Virus record (IMG/VR): IMGVR_UViG_3300042273_000209
DNA length: 36,310 nucleotides
From: a virus
Strand: one strand, 5' to 3'
Below the pieces are notes generated by a model. It made no database searches. It was not told the origin of the DNA and saw nothing but the letters and a program-made list of their open reading frames with translations. The translations under genes were made by a program, and so were the position numbers. Position 1 is the stretch's first letter; each line of letters starts with the position of its first letter. Shown here piece by piece: positions 5,013 through 15,973 of this stretch.

Positions 5013-6557
5013 ATGTTTTCACGCAAAAAAGCAGACTGGGCGATTGAATTTATTGCCAGGCTAAAACACACAAAAGGCGAATGGGCCGGCAAGCCCTTCC
5101 TGCTTCAAAAATGGCAGAAGATGTTTTTGAAGGAACTCTTCGGGCGCGTCAAAGATGACGGACTCCGGCAATATCAGACCGCATATCTGGAGATCCCGCG
5201 CAAAAACGGGAAGTCTGAACTTGCCGCCGCCATCGCTCTTTTTCTCCTCTTCGGAGACGGGGAGCCGGGAGCGGAAATATACAGCGCCGCGTCGGACAGG
5301 GAGCAGGCATCCCTCGTATTCAACGCGGCTGCGTATATGGTCCGCAATGACCCGGTGCTCTCCGGCATGTGCAAAATCATCGACTCTCAGAAGCGGATCG
5401 TGTTCTACGAGACGGCGAGTTTTTACCGGGCCATCAGCGCGGAGGCATACTCGAAGCACGGATTCAACGCGCACGCCGTCATTTACGACGAAATTCACAG
5501 CGCACCGAACCGTGACCTCTGGGACGTGCTTTCCACGTCCATGGGAGCGAGGACACAACCGCTCATGCTCGGGATTACGACGGCAGGCTACGACCGGAAC
5601 TCCATCTGCTGGGAACTTCACGACTACGGGCAAAAAATCATTGACGGCGTGGTTGAAGATCCAACATTTTTCCCGCTCATATTCGCCGCCGACGAGGGAG
5701 ACGAATGGACGGACGAAAAAACGTGGAGGAAGGCGAACCCGAACCTAGGGGTATCAATCAAGCTCGACTTCCTGCGTCGGGAGTGCAAACGCGCCCAGGA
5801 GATCCCCGCCTACCAGAACACGTTCCGGCGGCTGTACCTCAACCAGTGGACGACTCAGGAAACGCGTTGGCTCGATATGTCGAAATGGCGCGAGTGCGGA
5901 GAGGACTTCGACCTCTCGAAGCTCGCAGACCTCCAATGCTGGGCTGGCGTGGACTTGAGCACCACGACCGACATATCCTCTTGCGCCTTGGTATTCGAGC
6001 CGGACGAGGAAGACAGGGTCCACGTCCTCTCGTTTAATTGGGTACCCGGCGACAACATCGCGGCAAGGGTTCGCCGTGACCGCGTGCCATACGACGCATG
6101 GGCGCGAGACGGGCATATCGTGGCGACGGACGGCAACGTCATAGACCATGACTACATCAGAAATTCTATCGCCATCGACCTTAAAGCTATGTTCCCGCGC
6201 TTGGAGGTCGTTGGATACGACCCATGGAACGCCACAAAATGGGCCATCGACCTCGAAGGCGACGGCGTGCCGGTGGTGCAGATCCGGCAGGGGTACAAGA
6301 CCATGAGCCCCGCATGCAAGGAATTAGAACGGCTTGTGCTCGGGGGTTATTTGCGCCACAACAATAACCCTGTTTTGACCTGGGCAATGGACAACGTTAT
6401 GGTCACGCAAGACCCGGCGGGGAATATTAAACCCGCAAAGGACAAGGCGACTGAGAGGATAGACCCGGCAGTTGCTCTAATAACCGCCATCGCCACCATG
6501 CTGGAGTTCCGCGACGAGCCGTCAATCTATGAATCGAGGGGAATACTAACTCTCTGA
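5013..6557 (+). CDS. Terminase large subunit
   Basis: 514 aa; conserved terminase_1 blocks (EIPRKNGKSELAAA, VIYDEIH, nuclease C-terminus). Confidence 0.9.
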   Translation: MFSRKKADWAIEFIARLKHTKGEWAGKPFLLQKWQKMFLKELFGRVKDDGLRQYQTAYLEIPRKNGKSELAAAIALFLLFGDGEPGAEIYSAASDREQASLVFNAAAYMVRNDPVLSGMCKIIDSQKRIVFYETASFYRAISAEAYSKHGFNAHAVIYDEIHSAPNRDLWDVLSTSMGARTQPLMLGITTAGYDRNSICWELHDYGQKIIDGVVEDPTFFPLIFAADEGDEWTDEKTWRKANPNLGVSIKLDFLRRECKRAQEIPAYQNTFRRLYLNQWTTQETRWLDMSKWRECGEDFDLSKLADLQCWAGVDLSTTTDISSCALVFEPDEEDRVHVLSFNWVPGDNIAARVRRDRVPYDAWARDGHIVATDGNVIDHDYIRNSIAIDLKAMFPRLEVVGYDPWNATKWAIDLEGDGVPVVQIRQGYKTMSPACKELERLVLGGYLRHNNNPVLTWAMDNVMVTQDPAGNIKPAKDKATERIDPAVALITAIATMLEFRDEPSIYESRGILTL

Positions 6558-6574
6558 CACTTAACCCACAAGTT

Positions 6575-6608
6575 AAGCCGCTTTCCTTCGGGGGGCGGCT
6601 TTTTTATT
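6575..6608 (+). terminator. Rho-independent terminator after large terminase
   Basis: GC stem aagccgc...gcggctt followed by a T-run. Confidence 0.6.
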
Positions 6609-7914
6609 GCCAAAAAAGGAGGTGAAAACCCTGAAAAAGAGCGTTTTCGCGCAAATAAAAGACATTTTTCGGCGGGGATTGTACCCCGGAGGACACCCGT
6701 CGGAAGCCGAGATCGTTCGCATACTCACGGGGGCAAGCCTGACGGGACACACCGTGGACGAAGAAAAAGCCATGAGGTTCTCGGCGGTTTACTCCTGCGT
6801 GCGCGTTCTCTCGGAGTCAGTGGCGCAGTTGCCGCTCAAAATCTACCGGCGCAAGGGGGACGGGAGGCAGGAGGCTGCCGACCATTATCTTTATCCACTC
6901 CTGCACGGTGCCCCGAACCCTCGGCAGACGGCGTTCTCGTTCTGGGAGGCCGTCACCGCGAGCCTCGCTCTCTGGGGCAACGCCTACGCCCTCATCGACC
7001 TTGACAACGCCGGCAGGGTGGCAGCGCTCTGGTTCCTCGATCCGTCCACGGTCACACCCAGGAAAGTTCTGACCACTGGCGAGCTTGTTTATGACGTGGC
7101 GATGAAGGACGGCACCAGCCGGACGTTCCTGTGGGGAGAACTGTTCCACATCCCGGGGCTGGGCTTCGACGGCCTTCGGGGTCATTCCGTGGTGAGGGTG
7201 GCGGCGGAGGCTATCGGGCAGGGGATAGCGGCCAGCGAGTACGCTGGGAGATTTTTCGACAATGACGCGACACCGAGGGGTGTACTGGAAACGGACGCTT
7301 TTTTCAAAGACCCGTCTGTCGTCGAACGCCTCAGGAGGTCATGGAACGATCTCTACCAGGGGACAAACAACGCCCACCGGGTGGCCATCCTTGAAAACGG
7401 TCTGAAATTCAAACCGCTGACCATCAACCCCGAGGACGCGCAACTGCTCGAAACGCGCAAGTTCAACAGGTCTGAAATCGCCGGGATCTTCCGTGTGCCC
7501 CTGCACATGATCGGCGACCTGGACAAGGCGACGTTCAGCAACATCGAACACCAGAGTATCGACTTCGTGAAATTCAGTCTCTCGCCATGGCTCAAAAGGA
7601 TTGAACAGGCTATATCCCTGCAACTCTTCTCTCCGGGGGAGCGTAAGCGGTATTTTGCCGAGTTCAAGCCGGAAGGGATGCTCAAAGGGGACGTCAAGAG
7701 CAGGTATGAGGCATACGAGGTGGCTATCCGCAGCGGTTGGATGAGCATCAACGAGGTCCGTGGACTGGAGAATTTGAACCCCGTAGACGGTGGAGACGAG
7801 CACTATCTCCAGATGCAGATGATACCCATCTCGCAGGCGGGAAAGGAGGCAGAGGATGGACAGGGAAATTCGAGCGATCCCGGCGGAGTTCCGGGTGAAG
7901 GAATCGGAGAATGA
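6607..7914 (+). CDS. Portal protein, HK97 family
   Basis: FSAVYSCVRVLSESVAQLPLKIYRR and downstream portal blocks; start uncertain (TTG 6607, CTG 6631 after AAGGAGGTG RBS, or ATG 6772). Confidence 0.8.
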   Translation: MPKKEVKTLKKSVFAQIKDIFRRGLYPGGHPSEAEIVRILTGASLTGHTVDEEKAMRFSAVYSCVRVLSESVAQLPLKIYRRKGDGRQEAADHYLYPLLHGAPNPRQTAFSFWEAVTASLALWGNAYALIDLDNAGRVAALWFLDPSTVTPRKVLTTGELVYDVAMKDGTSRTFLWGELFHIPGLGFDGLRGHSVVRVAAEAIGQGIAASEYAGRFFDNDATPRGVLETDAFFKDPSVVERLRRSWNDLYQGTNNAHRVAILENGLKFKPLTINPEDAQLLETRKFNRSEIAGIFRVPLHMIGDLDKATFSNIEHQSIDFVKFSLSPWLKRIEQAISLQLFSPGERKRYFAEFKPEGMLKGDVKSRYEAYEVAIRSGWMSINEVRGLENLNPVDGGDEHYLQMQMIPISQAGKEAEDGQGNSSDPGGVPGEGIGE

Positions 7915-8434
7915 GCCGCTGAAGATCATCGGCTACGCGGCGCGGTTCAACGAGCTCTCGGAAGAAATGTGGGGCATGCGGGAAAAAATCGCCCCAGGCG
8001 CATTCACGGAAGCCATCGGAAAAAGCGACGTGAGAGCCTTGTGGAACCATGACCCGAACTACGTTTTAGGACGCACCAAAAACGGCACCCTGCAGATCCG
8101 CGAGGACGAGCAGGGTCTTTTTTATGAGGTCACGCCTCCGGATGCGCAGTGGGCGCGGGACCTGGTGGAGAGCATAAAGCGGGGGGACGTGGACCAGTCC
8201 AGCTTCGCCTTCACGGTGGACGTGGAGCAATGGGACGAATCGGGAAGCCCAGTGGTCCGCACCATCGTAAAAGTGCGCGAGTTGTTTGACGTTTCGCCGG
8301 TCACCTATCCGGCCTATCCCACGGCCACCAGCGGCGTGCGGTCCCTGCAGGACGTGGCGAAGGAGCACAAGGCGGCACCGGCACCAAAAGCCCCGGAACA
8401 TCTCCGGGACAAACTTAAATTTCTGGAGGTATGA
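7856..8434 (+). CDS. Prohead protease, HK97 family
   Basis: LKIIGYAARFNELSEEM...IAPGAF; overlaps portal 3' end. Confidence 0.85.
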   Translation: MDREIRAIPAEFRVKESENEPLKIIGYAARFNELSEEMWGMREKIAPGAFTEAIGKSDVRALWNHDPNYVLGRTKNGTLQIREDEQGLFYEVTPPDAQWARDLVESIKRGDVDQSSFAFTVDVEQWDESGSPVVRTIVKVRELFDVSPVTYPAYPTATSGVRSLQDVAKEHKAAPAPKAPEHLRDKLKFLEV

Positions 8435-8435
8435 A

Positions 8436-9623
8436 ATGAATATCAGGGAAATGATGGAACAGCGCGCAACCCTTGTTGCAGAGGCCCGGAAGCTGCTTGA
8501 CGTTGCCGAGGGCGAGAAGCGGGAACTGAACGCTGAAGAGCGGACGCAGTACGACAAGATTTTTGAAGAGGCTCGCACCCTGGGTGACAAGATTCAGCGC
8601 GAGCAGGAGCTTCGCGAAGAGGAAAGGCGGCTCGCCGAGGCCGGCCGGCTGGAACCCGAGGGGAAAAAGGAAAATCCCGAAGAGCGCAAGCTTAAAGCGT
8701 TCCGCAATTTCCTTGTCACGGGCAACGCCGCGGAATATCGCGCACTGGCTAACGACACCGACGAGACGGGTGGATTCCTTCACGCTGCGGAGCAGTTTAT
8801 CACTCGGCTCATCAAGGGACTGGATGACAGGGTATTTGTCCGGCAGTACGCCACCGTCCTGCCCGTGACCAGCTCCGATACTCTCGGTGTTCCCGTCCTG
8901 ACCGCAGACCCGGGAGACCCCACGTGGACAACGGAAATCGCCGCTCCCTCCGAGGACAGCACCATGGCCTTCGGACGGCGCAGCCTGCAGCCCGAACAGC
9001 TCTCCAAGCTGATCAAAATTTCCATGAAGCTCCTTCGGACCTCGGCCCTGCCCATCGAGAATCTCGTGGCGGACAGGCTCGCGTACAAGTTCGCCGTGGC
9101 GCAGGAAAACGCGTTCCTCAACGGCGACGGCGACGGGCAGCCTCTCGGCATTTTCACCGCAAGCGACGACGGAATCCCGACTACTCGCGACGTGAGCACC
9201 GGCAACAGCGATACGGCGTTGACAGCGGACGGGTTGATCAACGCGAAATTCGCGCTCAAGGCTCAGTATCGCGGCTCCTGCCGTTGGATCTTCCATCGAG
9301 ACGCGGTGAAGATGATCTCCACGCTCAAGGACGGGGAAGGTCAGTACCTTTGGAGACCGGGGATGCTCATGAACGAGCCGGACATGCTTCTTGGGCATCC
9401 CGTTGACGAGAGCGAGTATGTGCCCAACACCTTTACCACCGGCCTGTACGTCGGCGCGCTCTGCAACTGGAGTAACTACTGGATTGCCGAGCTCCAGGGC
9501 GTGGAGCTCCAGAGGCTCGTAGAACTCTACGCGGGAACCTCGCAGATCGGATTCATCGGCCGGATGTATGCCGACGGCGCTCCCGTCCTTGCGGAATCCT
9601 TTGTCCGCGTCAAGCTCGGATAG
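8436..9623 (+). CDS. Major capsid protein, HK97 fold, with N-terminal coiled-coil delta domain
   Basis: GGAGGT RBS; ATG next to protease stop; 395 aa. Confidence 0.9.
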   Translation: MNIREMMEQRATLVAEARKLLDVAEGEKRELNAEERTQYDKIFEEARTLGDKIQREQELREEERRLAEAGRLEPEGKKENPEERKLKAFRNFLVTGNAAEYRALANDTDETGGFLHAAEQFITRLIKGLDDRVFVRQYATVLPVTSSDTLGVPVLTADPGDPTWTTEIAAPSEDSTMAFGRRSLQPEQLSKLIKISMKLLRTSALPIENLVADRLAYKFAVAQENAFLNGDGDGQPLGIFTASDDGIPTTRDVSTGNSDTALTADGLINAKFALKAQYRGSCRWIFHRDAVKMISTLKDGEGQYLWRPGMLMNEPDMLLGHPVDESEYVPNTFTTGLYVGALCNWSNYWIAELQGVELQRLVELYAGTSQIGFIGRMYADGAPVLAESFVRVKLG

Positions 9624-9654: not shown

Positions 9655-9684
9655 AAAGAGGGGCTTTAAGCCCCTCTTTTTTTA
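9655..9684 (+). terminator. Rho-independent terminator after capsid gene
   Basis: gaggggc-loop-gcccctc followed by 7 T. Confidence 0.7.
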
Positions 9685-9707
9685 CATTCTGACAAGGAGA
9701 TGAAGGC

Positions 9708-10159: not shown

Positions 10160-10171
10160 GAGGTGAAACCG

Positions 10172-10801
10172 ATGGAGCTAAAAGTAGTTACCCCTCCGGC
10201 GGCTGAACCTCTCTCGACTGCGGAGGCGAAGCTCCATCTCCGCGTAGACCACACATCAGACGATACCCTCATCTCCGCCCTGATCGTTGCGGCCCGGGAG
10301 CACGTTGAAAACTACCTCGTCGGGAGCCTCGTCGAGCAGACCCGGGCCGTCTACCTCTCCGCATGGCCATACGCCCCCTTCCGTCTCCCCTGCGGCCCGG
10401 TGCAGTCAATCGACTCTGTGAAATACACGGACAGCGACGGTGCGGAGCACACCGTGAGTACTGACCTCTATTACCTCTCGCCCGGCGGGGAACTCTGCCT
10501 AGAGCCGTTTGAATCCTGGCCGACAGCACGGCTTCGGGGGCCGGGTGCCATAGAGATAGTCTATACCACCGGGTATGAGCCTGTGGTCACGGTCATTCCC
10601 GGCGAGGAGGAGGGCGACCCGGACACGGAGGAAACGGACTACGGCGCGAACATCCCGCAGGCGATAAAACAGGCCATGCTCCTGCTGATCGGCGAATGGT
10701 ACGAGCAGCGGGAAGCCGCCGCCGACACGAAATACAACATCCAAACCATCCCGTGGGGGGTTAAACAACTGCTCGCCCCATATCGTGAGGCGACGGTATG
10801 A
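10172..10801 (+). CDS. Head-tail connector protein (gp6-like)
   Basis: LSTAEAKLHLRVDHTSDDTLISALIVAAREHVENY motif; GGAGGTG RBS. Confidence 0.7.
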   Translation: MELKVVTPPAAEPLSTAEAKLHLRVDHTSDDTLISALIVAAREHVENYLVGSLVEQTRAVYLSAWPYAPFRLPCGPVQSIDSVKYTDSDGAEHTVSTDLYYLSPGGELCLEPFESWPTARLRGPGAIEIVYTTGYEPVVTVIPGEEEGDPDTEETDYGANIPQAIKQAMLLLIGEWYEQREAAADTKYNIQTIPWGVKQLLAPYREATV

Positions 10802-11127
10802 GCCGGATAGGTGAACTCTGCGAACGTATCGACATCAAGCGGGAGAAGCGCACAGCGGACGGAATGGGCGGCTGGACGGTCTCTGATCAGATGGTCGCCA
10901 CCGTCTGGGCGGGGGTACGGGTGCCAGCCTCAAAGGACGGGATGATTGCCGGGGCGGACGCGGAGATCCGGACGCATGTGGTAAGGGTGCGGCAGAGCGC
11001 AGACACTCTCACCGTGCAGATCAACGACACTATCACCTGGCGGGGGTACTCTCTTACCGTTCGTGCGTGCCGTCCGTTGGAGCGGGAGTGGATCGATTTT
11101 GATTGCAAGCTGGAGGTGCCGGAATGA
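10798..11127 (+). CDS. Head closure / head-tail adaptor protein
   Basis: Size, synteny, ATGA coupling. Confidence 0.6.
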   Translation: MSRIGELCERIDIKREKRTADGMGGWTVSDQMVATVWAGVRVPASKDGMIAGADAEIRTHVVRVRQSADTLTVQINDTITWRGYSLTVRACRPLEREWIDFDCKLEVPE

Positions 11128-11513
11128 TTACTGTCCGGGTAGAAGGCATGGAGGAAATTCTTCGGGATCTCCGGAAAGCCCAGGCTGACGTACAAGGGGA
11201 AGCCAGGGCGGTGCTGAAGGAGCAGGCGAAAGTTATTCGAGACGATGCCCGTAGCCGATGCCCTGAGGATACGGGCACGTTGAAAAGATCGGTGCGGTCG
11301 TCAGTGTCCAGGGAAAAACTTGATGCCTCTGTCTCTGCCGGCGGGAAAGTTCGCGGAAAAGACGCTTACTATGCGCAGTTCGTGGAGTTTGGGACAAAAC
11401 ACTCCCCGGCGCAACCCTTCCTGTATCCCGCAGGCCGGGCGCATGAGAAGGAGACGGAAGAAAAGCTCGTCGAGGTCTTGACTGACGCTGTGAGGAAGGG
11501 GGCGGGAGGATGA
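11124..11513 (+). CDS. HK97 gp10-family tail component
   Basis: TGTLKRS...AYYAQFVEFGT motif; GGAGGTG RBS; ATGA coupling. Confidence 0.7.
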   Translation: MITVRVEGMEEILRDLRKAQADVQGEARAVLKEQAKVIRDDARSRCPEDTGTLKRSVRSSVSREKLDASVSAGGKVRGKDAYYAQFVEFGTKHSPAQPFLYPAGRAHEKETEEKLVEVLTDAVRKGAGG

Positions 11514-11863
11514 GCCATGTTTCGGTAACACAAGCCATTTATACCGTCCTTACCGCCTCGGCTCCCCTCATGGCGAAAATCACAGGTGTCTATGACGTGG
11601 TCCCGGAGGGTACGGACGGGCCGTACATCGCCCTCGGATATCAGCAGTCCCTCCGCGGCAGGATCATCGACGAGACGGAACGCACCTGGTACTACGACCT
11701 GGACATCTGGAGCAGCTACCAGGGCAGGAAAGAGGTGCTGGAAATCGCCGACCTTGTGCGGGCGGCACTCCCTCCCGAGTGGTTCTATGAGGAGCTGACG
11801 GTGCTGAAAGATCCCTCGGGCTGGTACCATGGCGTTTTGGCGATCAAGGGATATGACAGATAG
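11510..11863 (+). CDS. Tail completion protein (DUF3168-like)
   Basis: Synteny and size. Confidence 0.55.
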   Translation: MSHVSVTQAIYTVLTASAPLMAKITGVYDVVPEGTDGPYIALGYQQSLRGRIIDETERTWYYDLDIWSSYQGRKEVLEIADLVRAALPPEWFYEELTVLKDPSGWYHGVLAIKGYDR

Positions 11864-11874
11864 GAGATGATTCT

Positions 11875-12291
11875 ATGGGCGCAACGGCATCTAAAGTAAG
11901 CGTTCTGAAATTGACGGTGGGAGCAACCCCCACGGCTCTCGGGGAGGTCAGAAGTTTTAGCATTGAGACCGCCCTCGGGACGATTGACGTAAGCACACTT
12001 TCGACGGACTGGAAAAAATACCTTGTCGGACAGGCGGGATGGAGCGGAAGCCTTGAATGCTTCTACGATCCCACGGACGCGGCACAGGCAGATCTCGTGA
12101 GCAAGGCGCGGGCGGGCACGATCTGCACCCTCACCGTGCAGCCCCTCGGGGCGGGTGCAGGGAAAACCCAGCTTTCCGGCACGTGCTACGTGACCAGCAT
12201 GTCAATCACCGGAGCGACGGAAGACGCGGTAGGAGTCTCTTTCAGCTTCCAGGGAACCGGAGAGCTTGCTCTTGCCTCCGATGCCTCGTAG
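11875..12291 (+). CDS. Major tail (tube) protein, copy 1
   Basis: AGGAGA RBS; position before chaperone and tape measure; shares GEVRSFS.ET.LGTIDVSTLSTDWKKYLVGQAGWS with next gene. Confidence 0.7.
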   Translation: MGATASKVSVLKLTVGATPTALGEVRSFSIETALGTIDVSTLSTDWKKYLVGQAGWSGSLECFYDPTDAAQADLVSKARAGTICTLTVQPLGAGAGKTQLSGTCYVTSMSITGATEDAVGVSFSFQGTGELALASDAS

Positions 12292-12302
12292 GGGGTGGCT
12301 GA

Positions 12303-12977
12303 ATGGGAGCTTTAGCGGCAAAGAAAGCAATCATCAAGTTCGACATTTTGGGGACGAAAACGAGCATCGGAGAGGTCCGTTCCTTCTCGGTGGAGACATC
12401 GCTCGGGACAATCGATGTTTCTACCCTTTCAACCGACTGGAAGAAATACCTCGTCGGCCAGGCGGGATGGTCCGCAAGCATGGATCTCTTTTATGACCCG
12501 ACAGACCCCGGACAGGAAGAACTCGCAACCCGCGCTCTTGCAGGTACGCCTTGTGAATTCACGTTTCTACCCTTCGGAGAGGACGAGGTGTATGTGCTCG
12601 ATCTCGGAGGTGCGACCGGAGGCACGTTTACACTCGGAGACGGCGCCACCATCGTTACCTCCTCGCTGGTTCACGACGCAACGCTGACGGAGATTCAGAC
12701 CGCACTGCGCACGGCCTATGACGAGCCGGGCATTTTCCTCGCAGAGGGGACGGGCACCATTATTATCTCCTTCCCCACGGGTGTGGCTGCTGGACTGGCC
12801 ATTCAATCCTCTCTCACGGGCGGGGAGGCGGCGACTTGCGTGTTGCAGGACGAGCCCGCCGTTTACGTTGGAACCGGCTCTATCACCTCGTGGAGCCCTT
12901 CGGGAGCCACCGAGGATGCCGTTGGGGTGTCAATTTCCGTCCAGGGAGACGGGGAACTGGAGTTGAACCCGGTATGA
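12303..12977 (+). CDS. Major tail protein paralog, copy 2, with about 85-aa internal insertion
   Basis: Near-identical N-terminal 50 aa and shared C-terminal end with copy 1; extra central Gly/Thr-rich segment. Confidence 0.65.
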   Translation: MGALAAKKAIIKFDILGTKTSIGEVRSFSVETSLGTIDVSTLSTDWKKYLVGQAGWSASMDLFYDPTDPGQEELATRALAGTPCEFTFLPFGEDEVYVLDLGGATGGTFTLGDGATIVTSSLVHDATLTEIQTALRTAYDEPGIFLAEGTGTIIISFPTGVAAGLAIQSSLTGGEAATCVLQDEPAVYVGTGSITSWSPSGATEDAVGVSISVQGDGELELNPV

Positions 12978-13294
12978 AGCTGAAAAAACTACAATATGGA
13001 ATCAACGCTATCCGGGCATTGGTGAAGGAAACCGGAAAAACGCCGCCTGAAATCTTGGAGTCCGGCTTCGATCCCCGAGATATCGAGTTCGGGGTGGCGC
13101 TCATTTGGGCGGGGCTCCTCTGGCAGGACAAAAGCCTGACCCTTGAACAGGTGGGAGACCTTCTCGATGAGGCTGAGGATGGGGCGTATTTTGAACTCGT
13201 CACCCTGGCTGTGAATGGCTTGGTCGCCTCCTTCCAGCGGAGCTTTGGAATCCAGGAGGAAGCCGGAGAGCCGGAAGAGCCGGAAAAAAACTGA
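12974..13294 (+). CDS. Tail assembly chaperone (G-like)
   Basis: Between major tail and tape measure; ends ...EPEKN at slippery A AAA AAC. Confidence 0.65.
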   Translation: MKLKKLQYGINAIRALVKETGKTPPEILESGFDPRDIEFGVALIWAGLLWQDKSLTLEQVGDLLDEAEDGAYFELVTLAVNGLVASFQRSFGIQEEAGEPEEPEKN

Positions 13295-13620
13295 CCGCAG
13301 GGGACTGGGAGCAAGCCGCTGCTGATCTGTTGCTGACGGCTCTTGGTCCCCTGCGTCTCTCCTATGATGACGTGTGGACCCTCACGTGGGGTGAAGTGGA
13401 AGACCTTGTCTATGCCTGGCGGTACTCGGAATTTTTGGAGACGCAAAAACGAGCGCAGCACGCCGCATGGCTCATGAACGCCACCGGGAATCTGAAAAGG
13501 CCCGTGAGGGTTGAGGACCTGTCCGGGTTCTGGGTAGATGGCGAAGTGCTGAGCAAAAACGAATACCACGAATTCCAGAAGCGGCGAATCCAGGCCAGGA
13601 AGGAGCGCAGGAATGGCTAA
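13285..13620 (+). CDS. -1 frame extension of tail assembly chaperone (GT-like frameshift product)
   Basis: Slippery heptamer A_AAA_AAC at 13285-13291; -1 frame open to TAA at 13618-13620, overlapping tape-measure start. Confidence 0.5.
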   Translation, partial: KKLTAGDWEQAAADLLLTALGPLRLSYDDVWTLTWGEVEDLVYAWRYSEFLETQKRAQHAAWLMNATGNLKRPVRVEDLSGFWVDGEVLSKNEYHEFQKRRIQARKERRNG

Positions 13621-15973
13621 AAAGAAAATCACATATGCGTTCGGCGCGGACCTCTCCGGCCTTGAGCGTGGATGGAAGCGCATCGATAGACAGATGCGCA
13701 CAATGTCCGCAAAAATGGAGCGCACCGGGCGAGCCATGACCACGGCGTTCACCGTTCCCTTGGCTGCCATCGGGACCATGGCGACGAAAGCCGCCCTTGA
13801 CGTGGACAAGGCGCTCCAGAACATCGCCCGGGGAACCGGTGCCACCGGGAAGGCCCTTGGGGATCTCCAGAAAGAATGGCGGTCTCTCGCGGGGACCGTG
13901 ACCCAGAACTTTGAGACCTCCGCCCAGGTGCTGGCCGATTACAACACCCGGCTTGGATTGACAGGGAAAGCACTTTCGGGGCTTTCGAAACAGGCCCTCG
14001 ATGCGGGGCGAATGATGGGAGAGGACGTCACCCAGGTGGTGGCGGAATCCTCCAAGGCTATGCAGGACTGGGGCGTGAAGGCTGGCGAAATGGCCGCCTT
14101 CATGGACAAGATTTTTATCGCCTCTCAAAGTACCGGAATCGGCATGGCGAAACTCTCCTCCCAGATGTACAAATACGGTTCAGCATTAAGGCAGATGGGC
14201 TTTGATGCTAATGACACTGTGGCGATGCTGGCACAGTTCGAAAAACAGGGCGTCAACACCGAGCTTGTGCTTGGGTCTCTGCGGATTGCCCTGGGACAGC
14301 TCGCAAAGGCTGGGATTACCGACGCAGGGGAAGCCTTCCGGCAACTTGCGGAGGACATAAAGAGAACAGAGTCTCCGGCCGAGGCCGTGGGGAAAGCGAT
14401 AAAACTCTTCGGTGCTCGTGCCGGGGCTGACATGGCCGCCGCCATACGGGAAGGCCGCTTTGAGGTTGGAGAATTGGCGGCTGCCCTTGAAACGGCCCAG
14501 GGAGCCATAGAGCGTAACAGTGACGCTACAAAAACCTTCGGGGATCAATGGGCGGAGACGAAAAATCAAGTGTCCCTCTCCATAGAGCCTATCGGTCGGG
14601 AAATACTGAAGCTCGCAAACAGCGTTTTGCCCTCCCTCCAAGCGAAAGCCGAAAGCCTCGGAGTGGCAATCGGGAACATGAGCGACGAGAGCAAAAAGAA
14701 AATGATTGCTCTCGCCGGCGTCCTTGCTGCTGGGGGGCCGCTGGCGATGGCCATGTCCGCCACCCTTACCGCTGTGCGCACGCTCGGAACAGCCATGCTA
14801 GCGTTTGCCACCGGCCCGGCGGCCCCCCTCGTAGCGACAGCCGCCGCAGTCTGGGCAATCGTTGAAGCCTTCAAAGCACTCAACGACATGATGAGCAAAA
14901 CATCGGAGATACAAAAAAGAGCAACAGGCATGACTCCCGAACAGGTGATGAACCGGCAGAGATACCGTGAAATGGCCGGGGAAATATACCGGGAGCGGCA
15001 CGGAAAGTACCCGGTCACCGCTCCTGATTTTAAAGAGCTGGATTCCATCGTTGACGAACTGCTTGCGGAAGCCCGCAAGCGGATGCAGCAGCAGATCGAC
15101 ATGAAGGGATATGCCCAACGCACGGAAGTGTTGCCCTCTCCCGGGGTTCCCGGTGGAACCATAGACACCGCGACACCGGCGACACCGGCGCCGTTCCAAG
15201 GGCTTCCGGAGGCTGAGGCGGCGATCCAGAAGCTCACCGCCGCCGGGCGCGAATCGGTGACGGTGTATTCCCAACTTGCGCAGAAGCTTGCATCTGCTCT
15301 GAACATCTCGGAGGCGGAGGCCGAGAAGCGCCTTGAATCGGCGCGAGAGATCGGTGTTCTGACATCCGCCGAGATAACGCGCATGGAAAAGCGGAATGAG
15401 TTGCTCGAAGAGGCGCGGATGATCGCGGAGCAGGTGAACGCGACAAAAGAAAAAATAAAGGACACAACTTCCGACCTTGCGGACATGACGAAGCTCTGGG
15501 TAAACGACCTTGCCCGGGGACTGGCGGACGCAATCGTGAACGCCAAAGACCTGGGCGACGTGCTCCAAAGCATTGCGAAACAGATCGCCTCTTCAGCCCT
15601 TCAAAAGCTCATCGGTGGATGGATCGGCGGTTTATTCGCAGACGGGGCGGCCTTCCAAGACGGGCGCGTCATTCCGTTTGCCAAGGGCGGAATCGTTACC
15701 AAACCGACGATCTTTCCCATGGCTCGCGGCATGGGCTTGATGGGCGAAGCGGGGCCGGAGGCGGTCATGCCGCTTAAGCGAGGCGCTGACGGATCCCTTG
15801 GCGTGCAGTCCGAAGGCGGCGGAGGTACGCACATCACCATGAACATCAACGCCGTCGACAGCCGTTCCTTCGTGGAGATGATGCGGTCTAACCGGGCATC
15901 GGTTGAAAGTATCGTCGTTGAAAACATCATGAAAAACGGTGCGCTTCGCTCCGCGATAAGGGGGCTGGCGTAA
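13613..15973 (+). CDS. Tail tape measure protein
   Basis: 786 aa, Ala-rich helical, TM-like central segment, position. Confidence 0.85.
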   Translation: MAKKKITYAFGADLSGLERGWKRIDRQMRTMSAKMERTGRAMTTAFTVPLAAIGTMATKAALDVDKALQNIARGTGATGKALGDLQKEWRSLAGTVTQNFETSAQVLADYNTRLGLTGKALSGLSKQALDAGRMMGEDVTQVVAESSKAMQDWGVKAGEMAAFMDKIFIASQSTGIGMAKLSSQMYKYGSALRQMGFDANDTVAMLAQFEKQGVNTELVLGSLRIALGQLAKAGITDAGEAFRQLAEDIKRTESPAEAVGKAIKLFGARAGADMAAAIREGRFEVGELAAALETAQGAIERNSDATKTFGDQWAETKNQVSLSIEPIGREILKLANSVLPSLQAKAESLGVAIGNMSDESKKKMIALAGVLAAGGPLAMAMSATLTAVRTLGTAMLAFATGPAAPLVATAAAVWAIVEAFKALNDMMSKTSEIQKRATGMTPEQVMNRQRYREMAGEIYRERHGKYPVTAPDFKELDSIVDELLAEARKRMQQQIDMKGYAQRTEVLPSPGVPGGTIDTATPATPAPFQGLPEAEAAIQKLTAAGRESVTVYSQLAQKLASALNISEAEAEKRLESAREIGVLTSAEITRMEKRNELLEEARMIAEQVNATKEKIKDTTSDLADMTKLWVNDLARGLADAIVNAKDLGDVLQSIAKQIASSALQKLIGGWIGGLFADGAAFQDGRVIPFAKGGIVTKPTIFPMARGMGLMGEAGPEAVMPLKRGADGSLGVQSEGGGGTHITMNINAVDSRSFVEMMRSNRASVESIVVENIMKNGALRSAIRGLA

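Follow-up and report, generated by a model that had tools for sequence, protein, structure and literature searches.

In the virus record IMGVR_UViG_3300042273_000209, a stretch of 36,310 nucleotides (nt) that was analysed at its full length and is referred to here as the window (all coordinates are on its + strand), two adjacent genes at 11875-12977 encode paralogous major tail proteins: copy A (open reading frame (ORF) A, 11875-12291) is a short, plain tail tube protein, and copy B (ORF B, 12303-12977) bears a folded module of 97 residues inside its tube core. We consider it reasonably probable that both proteins are wall subunits of one non-contractile tail tube and that B shows its module on the outside of this tube. 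According to this explanation, A would be the ancestral plain subunit and B an old paralogue that would have kept the tube-forming core and gained the module in a core loop; both would enter the same tube wall, which would be decorated wherever B sits, with the module jutting from the outer tube face, where it would most likely give weak, multivalent and dispensable binding to polymers on the host surface.

The two tube proteins and the inserted module

Comparison of A and B by BLASTP gave 58 identical residues out of 92 over residues 1-92 (63%, E 6e-42) and 22 out of 32 between A102-133 and B190-221 (69%, E 2e-09): such similarity is far above chance and identifies the two as paralogues, as had been proposed, together with their common C-terminal end, in an earlier reading of the window made from its sequence alone (the sequence-only reading). 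The same reading had described the N-terminal 50 amino acids (aa) as near-identical, which holds in part: identity over the first 50 aa is 34/50 and reaches only 8/22 over residues 1-22, and the near-identical block is found at residues 23-60 (34/38), followed by 16/32 over residues 61-92. The claim that the DNA has diverged with many synonymous differences was borne out, with 166 of 276 nt identical in codons 1-92 and with 18 of the 34 codons for identical residues within the stretch 23-60 differing between A and B. Further, the synonymous divergence (dS, Nei-Gojobori) between A and B of one genome was above 1.2 or saturated in every genome examined, and A has itself diverged to 57% identity within the family in which A and B form sister clades: the duplication is thus old. 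Recent gene conversion as the source of the near-identical stretch is ruled out by the differing codons together with the saturated dS, and short-tract conversion now and then in residues 23-60 is possible. Read-through or fusion between A and B is ruled out as well, since the two genes are separated by 11 nt that are out of frame and the length of this gap varies between 3 and 16 nt among relatives.

With regard to protein family, A lies above the cut-offs of both PF06199 Phage_tail_2 (29.6 bits, cut-off 23.8) and NF047353 tube_lmo2291 (28.6, cut-off 27) and matches PHROG 1407 major tail protein with an E of 1.7e-19. Copy B matches the same PHROG with an E of 3e-10 but falls just below the cut-offs of both PF06199 (21.1 bits, E 3.5e-4) and NF047353 (26.9), because the insert splits the match. 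On these profile matches A and B are siphophage tail tube proteins of the TP901-1/Phage_tail_2 type, in line with the major tail protein identity given to them by the sequence-only reading. The structure of B was predicted using an alignment of 76 rows, an earlier run on 36 close homologues having given an unusable model with a mean predicted local distance difference test score (pLDDT) of 53. The tube fold, namely a beta-sandwich with an alpha-helix flanking it and with a long loop, was found: B retains the complete tube core, including the long loop (residues 34-53) that is left disordered by the model at low confidence and that covers much of the near-identical stretch 23-60, whilst the C-terminal part of the core forms two long beta strands (188-202 and 207-215). 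The insert comes after helix 69-79 and one strand. No cultured relative was identified in a tblastn search of B against 50,697 cultured phage records, which returned only one weak match, to a Sinorhizobium phage tube protein with 22% query coverage.

The insert comprises B93-189 (97 aa) and stands in place of A93-101 (9 aa), the net gain being 86 aa. This agrees with the extra segment of about 85 aa described in the sequence-only reading, although its Gly/Thr-rich character proved to be only mild, with these two residues making up 28% of the insert vs 22% of the B core. The model of the insert is confident (pLDDT of about 90 over residues 100-180) and predicts an alpha/beta fold with strands around a single helix (128-139), which is not immunoglobulin-like; the insert is therefore a folded domain and not low-complexity filler. 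When a profile of 36 B homologues was compared with the sequences of the PDB, matches were obtained to residues 197-267 of Bxb1 gp19 (E 4e-7) and to residues 309-380 of the Bxb1 capsid protein (E 2.7e-4), and the predicted fold of the insert is the same as that of the Bxb1 domain: by sequence and predicted fold, the insert is the module that forms the C-terminal extension (CTE) of the Bxb1 tail tube protein gp19 (PDB ID: 9d93) and capsid protein (PDB ID: 9d9w/9d9x), and that is also carried by the tail-tip cage protein gp23. Three more CTE-like domains have been described in the Bxb1 distal tail protein in a preprint (PMC13252515). The placement is different, as 35 core residues follow the module in B, where it is internal and not a C-terminal appendage. 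The extensions of the Bxb1 capsid and tube proteins are 47% identical to each other, and both are dispensable for viability; their immunogenicity is strong, and their deletion or replacement abolishes antibody recognition of the protein (PMC8704799). The sequence-only reading had taken the segment for a probable surface domain, and this assignment is strengthened by the finding that it is folded and of the type borne on the Bxb1 tube and capsid.

Searching all six frames of the window with a hidden Markov model (HMM) of the module revealed a single copy, in B, and none on the capsid protein or any other gene. The insert is unnamed in Pfam, NCBIfam and PHROGs, where the sole hint was a weak similarity to PHROG 10909 in its C-terminal part, and an exhaustive phmmer search yielded only 31 representative clusters at E <=0.001. 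The clusters bearing the module include a B-type tube protein, a head-tail adaptor, Phage-tail_3 proteins, a LamG protein and a prophage tail endopeptidase; among P0141, P0143 and P0136 there are, in addition, a flagellar hook protein (with Flg_bb_rod and FlgE D1 domains) and a flagellin of 1447 aa with three matched stretches, and two further proteins (P0140 and P0146) are built of tandem copies of the module. The module appears to be a mobile surface domain without a name, borne on filaments of bacteria and phages.

Conservation and evolution of the pair

Homologues of B and A were found in 319 and 234 clusters, respectively, with Synergistota metagenome-assembled genomes (MAGs) and anaerobic metagenomes as their sources; a scan of genome contigs gave only 4 loci, 3 of these on very short MAG contigs, and one Aminobacterium prophage lies on a contig of 942 kb (L003). 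Close copies of A (77-96% identity) were also seen on contigs of 1.7-2.7 kb from MAGs labelled Thermotogae, Latescibacterota and Porticoccaceae (L010, L011 and L012), labels that are probably binning errors and not a sign of wide host range, as longer contigs point to Synergistota.

A total of 93 related loci (L001-L093) was collected and classed together with the window. A complete arrangement of A, B and chaperone is present in 48 loci (the window and 47 related loci), A with a B that is cut by the contig end in 5, and a single short tube gene with the chaperone directly after it in 33, whilst 7 cannot be judged; the pair is hence present in 53 loci, and A is kept in all of them. The sequence-only reading had held that disruption of copy 2 in relatives would speak against it: B was found intact, at 221-230 aa, wherever there is room for it, which is the case in 47 of 47 such related loci and in the window. 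The duplication and the module are strictly linked, with the module HMM giving exactly one match in every pair locus in which that part of B is on the contig and no match in any single-gene locus. The single-gene relatives have the same flanking genes, including the same terminator, chaperones and lambda-like tip genes. One of these, a Dethiosulfovibrio prophage (L006), encodes a single tube protein that is 64% identical to A and 57% identical to the B core; this locus also harbours, on the opposite strand between its capsid and adaptor genes, a HicA/HicB toxin-antitoxin pair (L006:496-1216). Another locus (L076:3977-4642) encodes a single tube protein of 221 aa, with a core 56% identical to A and a C-terminal extension of about 85 aa that gave no match to the Bxb1-type module, which indicates that this tube family has used at least two ways of domain addition.

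A neighbour-joining tree of 98 distinct sequences, calculated over 136 shared core columns, places all A proteins in one clade (bootstrap 86%) and all B proteins in a sister clade (94%), with 72% for A and B together and the single-gene proteins outside. This topology is consistent with one duplication, after which neither copy was lost in any lineage. Ratios of non-synonymous to synonymous divergence (dN/dS, Nei-Gojobori) among orthologues are 0.12 (A), 0.09 (B core) and 0.19 (insert): all three parts are under purifying selection.

The A and B trees disagree in places. In L018, A is 95% identical to that of the window and the B core 70%, with the break at the gene junction. In L019, the DNA is 80-95% identical to the window over A and B but only 58-68% identical in 12655-12835, a tract of about 180 nt inside the insert, which suggests that the middle of the module was replaced or recombined locally. 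These two cases indicate that the copies reassort and that the centre of the module is exchanged or evolves separately; with tracts that break at the A/B junction and inside the insert, the module behaves as a separately exchanged, variable surface part.

Within one genome, A and B are slightly more alike than between different genomes (60.1% vs 58.0% identity, in a permutation test that ignores phylogeny). This excess lies mostly in residues 23-60, at both the residue and the codon level, and in the C-terminal strands, at the residue level only. It gives a hint of shared interfaces, of occasional short conversion tracts, or of both.

Proposed assembly of the two proteins in the tail tube

Several observations speak for an outward display of the module. 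A folded domain of 97 residues cannot fit in the lumen or in the ring interfaces; the site of insertion, after the peripheral helix 69-79 and a strand, is near the decoration site of JBD30 gp44 (PMC11445458); in preliminary Bxb1 structures, the copy on the capsid lies on the outside, and both Bxb1 extensions are immunodominant (PMC8704799); and elsewhere the module occurs in exposed regions of polymers. An adhesive role of the module is likely by analogy with the immunoglobulin (Ig)-like and FN3 domains of the lambda, T5 and SPP1 tubes (PMC5717097, PMC6316719). Given the long loop that contacts successive rings in solved tubes (JBD30, PMC11445458), and the preservation of the whole tube core in B, we infer that A and B would co-assemble, giving the mixed or decorated tube that had been put forward in the sequence-only reading.

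Some results weigh against this explanation. The entry of B into the virion, and with it co-assembly, is deduced from the genes; the tube core of the B model is weak (pLDDT 45-66); and the function of the module is not known even in Bxb1 (PMC8704799). The existence of single-gene relatives implies that an A-type protein suffices for a tube, so that B is not needed for tube formation as such, whilst full decoration is tolerated in Bxb1 and lambda, which leaves the constant retention of A unexplained. Genome-specific codon usage could, in addition, contribute to the likeness of A and B within genomes, for which the permutation tests ignore phylogeny.

An explanation for the retention of A could lie in the site of insertion: one possibility is that the insertion within the sandwich stops B-B contacts, by which mixed rings would be forced. 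This idea agrees with, but is not proved by, the strict coupling of the module to the duplication and the presence of A in every pair locus. Taken further, the rings could be obligate mixtures of A and B, for example an alternating A3B3 arrangement that would form a pseudo-threefold tube with one decoration per two cores. We regard such rings as rather unlikely, although they would explain that A was never lost in 53 pair loci, that neither a paralogue lacking the module nor a single tube gene with the module was found, and that, within genomes, A and B change in step in their interface-like segments.

Tube-initiator paralogues work as position-specific rings in contractile systems, and B could likewise be confined to one or a few special rings, be it the ring that starts the tube on the tail tip complex or the one that ends it under the terminator, with A building the rest of the tube. 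Tube paralogues with fixed positions are indeed present among the structural neighbours (Pvc5 vs Pvc1, and the tube initiator proteins of myophages), the B core is further from the single-gene relatives than A is (as described above for L006), and residues 1-22 and 61-92 differ strongly between the two copies. In spite of this, we judge a special ring to be improbable and rank it below a shared tube wall: the module of B is typical of high-copy surfaces, being shown by Bxb1 on tube and capsid subunits of high copy number (PMC8704799), the Shine-Dalgarno site of B is a good one, and such a ring is not needed by the single-gene relatives, in which terminator, chaperones and lambda-like tip genes are the same. 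The A and B lineages also recombine freely, which does not favour a special ring either.

It is also conceivable that A and B are alternatives that do not mix, so that virions with plain and with decorated tubes would occur in one population, or that B is made but not assembled. Co-assembly is not forced by anything in the sequence, and the SPP1 tube can form from gp17.1 alone (PMC6316719). However, the two genes are 11 nt apart in one operon and their gap holds no promoter-like or terminator-like site: with its own Shine-Dalgarno site and no terminator between the genes, B should be co-expressed with A, both being made in the same cell at the same time. As the segments relevant to assembly are, moreover, nearly identical, and as A is kept in all pair loci even though it could be lost if tubes of B were self-sufficient, we consider unmixed alternatives to be very unlikely. 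Least credible of all is that B, as a duplicate, decays or drifts neutrally and acquired its insert by chance, for which its scores just below the curated Pfam and NCBIfam cut-offs could be cited: the intact B genes of the relatives together with the low dN/dS of core and insert effectively refute this reading, and the insert folds confidently into a known domain.

Genomic setting and relation to known tail tubes

The late operon of the window is that of a standard HK97-type siphophage (Table 1), with A and B lying, in this order, between the terminator and the chaperones and tape measure, an order that is kept in the related loci.

Table 1. Features of the late operon in the window.
Feature	Coordinates	Strand	Evidence or remark
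Large terminase	5013-6557	+	
Portal	6607-7914	+	
Protease	7856-8434	+	
Major capsid protein	8286-9623	+	
GC-rich hairpin, then seven T	9655-9686	+	GAGGGGC/GCCCCTC; about 30 nt past the major capsid gene stop (9623)
Adaptor	10163-10801	+	
Head closure	10798-11127	+	
Neck protein	11103-11513	+	
Tail terminator, directly upstream of the pair	11510-11863	+	PHROG 176 tail terminator, E 8e-11
Shine-Dalgarno-like AGGAG, 8 nt 5' of A start	11862-11866	+	anti-Shine-Dalgarno duplex -7.3 kcal/mol
Copy A, short tail tube protein without decoration domain	11875-12291	+	138 aa
Shine-Dalgarno-like GGGGGTG for B, inside the 11-nt gap, overlapping the TAG stop of A	12291-12297	+	duplex -10.6 kcal/mol
Copy B	12303-12977	+	224 aa
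Copy B, N-terminal tube core, residues 1-92	12303-12578	+	63% identical to A1-92
Copy B, insert, residues 93-189, alpha/beta module	12579-12869	+	
Copy B, C-terminal core strands, residues 190-224 and stop	12870-12977	+	22/32 identical to A102-133
Tail assembly chaperone, G-like	12974-13294	+	PHROG 2115 tail protein, E 6e-9
Slippery heptamer A_AAA_AAC, -1 shift into T-like frame	13285-13291	+	sequence and -1 frame translation
Tape measure protein	13613-15973	+	786 aa; PF10145 PhageMin_Tail, E 1e-12

The terminator orthologues in the related loci belong to PF11367 Tail_completion_gp17, and an orthologue of the G-like chaperone comes after the tube gene or genes in every locus. In the window, the two small ORFs after B look like a G/GT-type frameshift pair on the basis of position and motif: the slippery heptamer lies just 5' of the TGA stop of the G-like gene, with the -1 frame staying open from that point as far as 13620. 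If these ORFs behave as a G/GT pair, A and B would together fill the slot that is normally held by one major tail protein gene. Downstream of the tape measure gene, a lambda gpM-like protein and a J-like tip protein of 1398 aa are encoded. The stop of B overlaps the start of the chaperone (ATGA, 12974-12977), which suggests translational coupling of the two; in the single-gene relatives, the spacing between tube gene and chaperone is 12-29 nt. Across the family, the Shine-Dalgarno site of A is the stronger one (median -11.8 vs -8.2 kcal/mol; A stronger in 24 of 33 loci), whilst the order is reversed in the window; no conclusion on stoichiometry is drawn from these strengths. The hairpin past the major capsid gene looks, from its sequence, like an intrinsic terminator within the late operon, by which capsid mRNA would perhaps be raised relative to the downstream genes.

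Comparison with known tail tubes reveals both precedents and differences. In SPP1, a plain and a decorated tube protein (gp17.1 and gp17.1*) are encoded together, as is the case for A and B, and the tube mixes the two at a ratio of about 3:1 (PMC6316719). There, both forms are made from one gene by a +1 frameshift and have identical cores, with the ratio set by the shift frequency; A and B, in turn, are two genes with their own starts and Shine-Dalgarno sites, their cores are 63% identical, the decoration is internal and of a different fold, and any ratio would depend on expression. Bxb1 has the module appended to the C-terminus of its sole tube protein, and hence on every subunit, and the capsid protein carries it as well; the pair has it inside the tube fold of a second paralogue, in the window on B only, with the plain subunit A kept. 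The hosts also differ, being Actinomycetota for Bxb1 and Synergistota for the pair. In the Pseudomonas phage JBD30, the decoration domain of gp44 (residues 88-175) lies within the tube beta-sandwich just past a peripheral alpha-helix and projects from the disc (PMC11445458), which resembles the position of the insert in B, but there is only one tube gene in JBD30, and the domain inserted there is immunoglobulin-like and not of the Bxb1 type. In T5 pb6, each unit consists of two tube domains, fused to each other, plus one decoration (Ig) domain, equal to the domain inventory of A and B combined (PMC5717097), whereas A and B are separate genes with a TAG stop and an out-of-frame gap between them. 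The heterohexamer of Hcp2 and Hcp3 from Bacteroides fragilis (PDB ID: 9vnd), tube paralogues of a type VI secretion system (T6SS), is found among the structural neighbours and demonstrates that rings of two tube paralogues are possible, whilst mixed rings of A and B are hypothetical.

Paralogous genes annotated as major tail protein have also been reported in the actinobacteriophage clusters EL, AM, AU, AW, BI, CC and DJ (PMC11080557, PMC10652937). In the Microbacterium phage DizzyRudy (MK814756, L094; 5783-9803), three proteins bear this annotation: gp17 (286 aa), gp19 (586 aa) and gp20 (255 aa), which have a common N-terminal core of about 215 aa (41-51% identical) and differ in their C-termini. 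Over its last 80 aa, gp17 shares 40% identity with the C-terminal end of gp14, a capsid-protease fusion, a pattern reminiscent of the extension that is common to Bxb1 gp14 and gp19. Like A and B, these are separate paralogous tube genes in one tail module, with a shared core and differing added domains; they differ from B in that the extensions are C-terminal and placed on a larger core, whilst B has an internal insertion in a TP901-1-type core of 138 aa. When A, the B core and the insert were compared by BLASTP with DizzyRudy gp14-gp21, nothing fell below an E of 0.07, and the likeness to the actinophage paralogues is, as judged from these comparisons, one of organisation and not of descent. 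No published virion or structural analysis of the actinophage paralogues was found, and the literature on phages with two tube proteins yielded only SPP1, extracellular contractile injection (eCIS) systems and remarks in genome announcements.

Each ingredient of the pair thus has a precedent in SPP1, Bxb1, JBD30 or the actinophage paralogues, and the pair is a variant of a known theme; the sequence-only reading gave neither the identity of the insert nor the single-gene relatives nor these precedents, which lessen the apparent novelty. As far as we could find, what is new is the combination: a small TP901-1-type tube gene that was duplicated once, with an internal Bxb1-type module in one copy, fixed across a clade of Synergistota phages. 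The pair probably yields a partly decorated tail, which would be an unusual route to a known end. Control of decoration density has been known by one route, the frameshift of SPP1, and the pair would represent a second, gene duplication, which is stable across a whole clade of Synergistota phages from metagenomes of the anaerobic digester type. Our findings also indicate that the Bxb1-type module is limited neither to actinophages nor to C-termini, being inserted in exposed regions of phage proteins (capsids, tubes, adaptors and tail tips) and also of flagellar hook proteins and flagellins, and that copy B points to a position at which a small tube protein tolerates internal display. Should the rings prove to be ordered mixtures of A and B, then the pair would be a counterpart of T5 pb6 without the fusion and could plausibly represent a stage in the evolution of that duplicated and fused tube protein, and it would be the first natural two-gene heteromeric tail tube of a siphophage.

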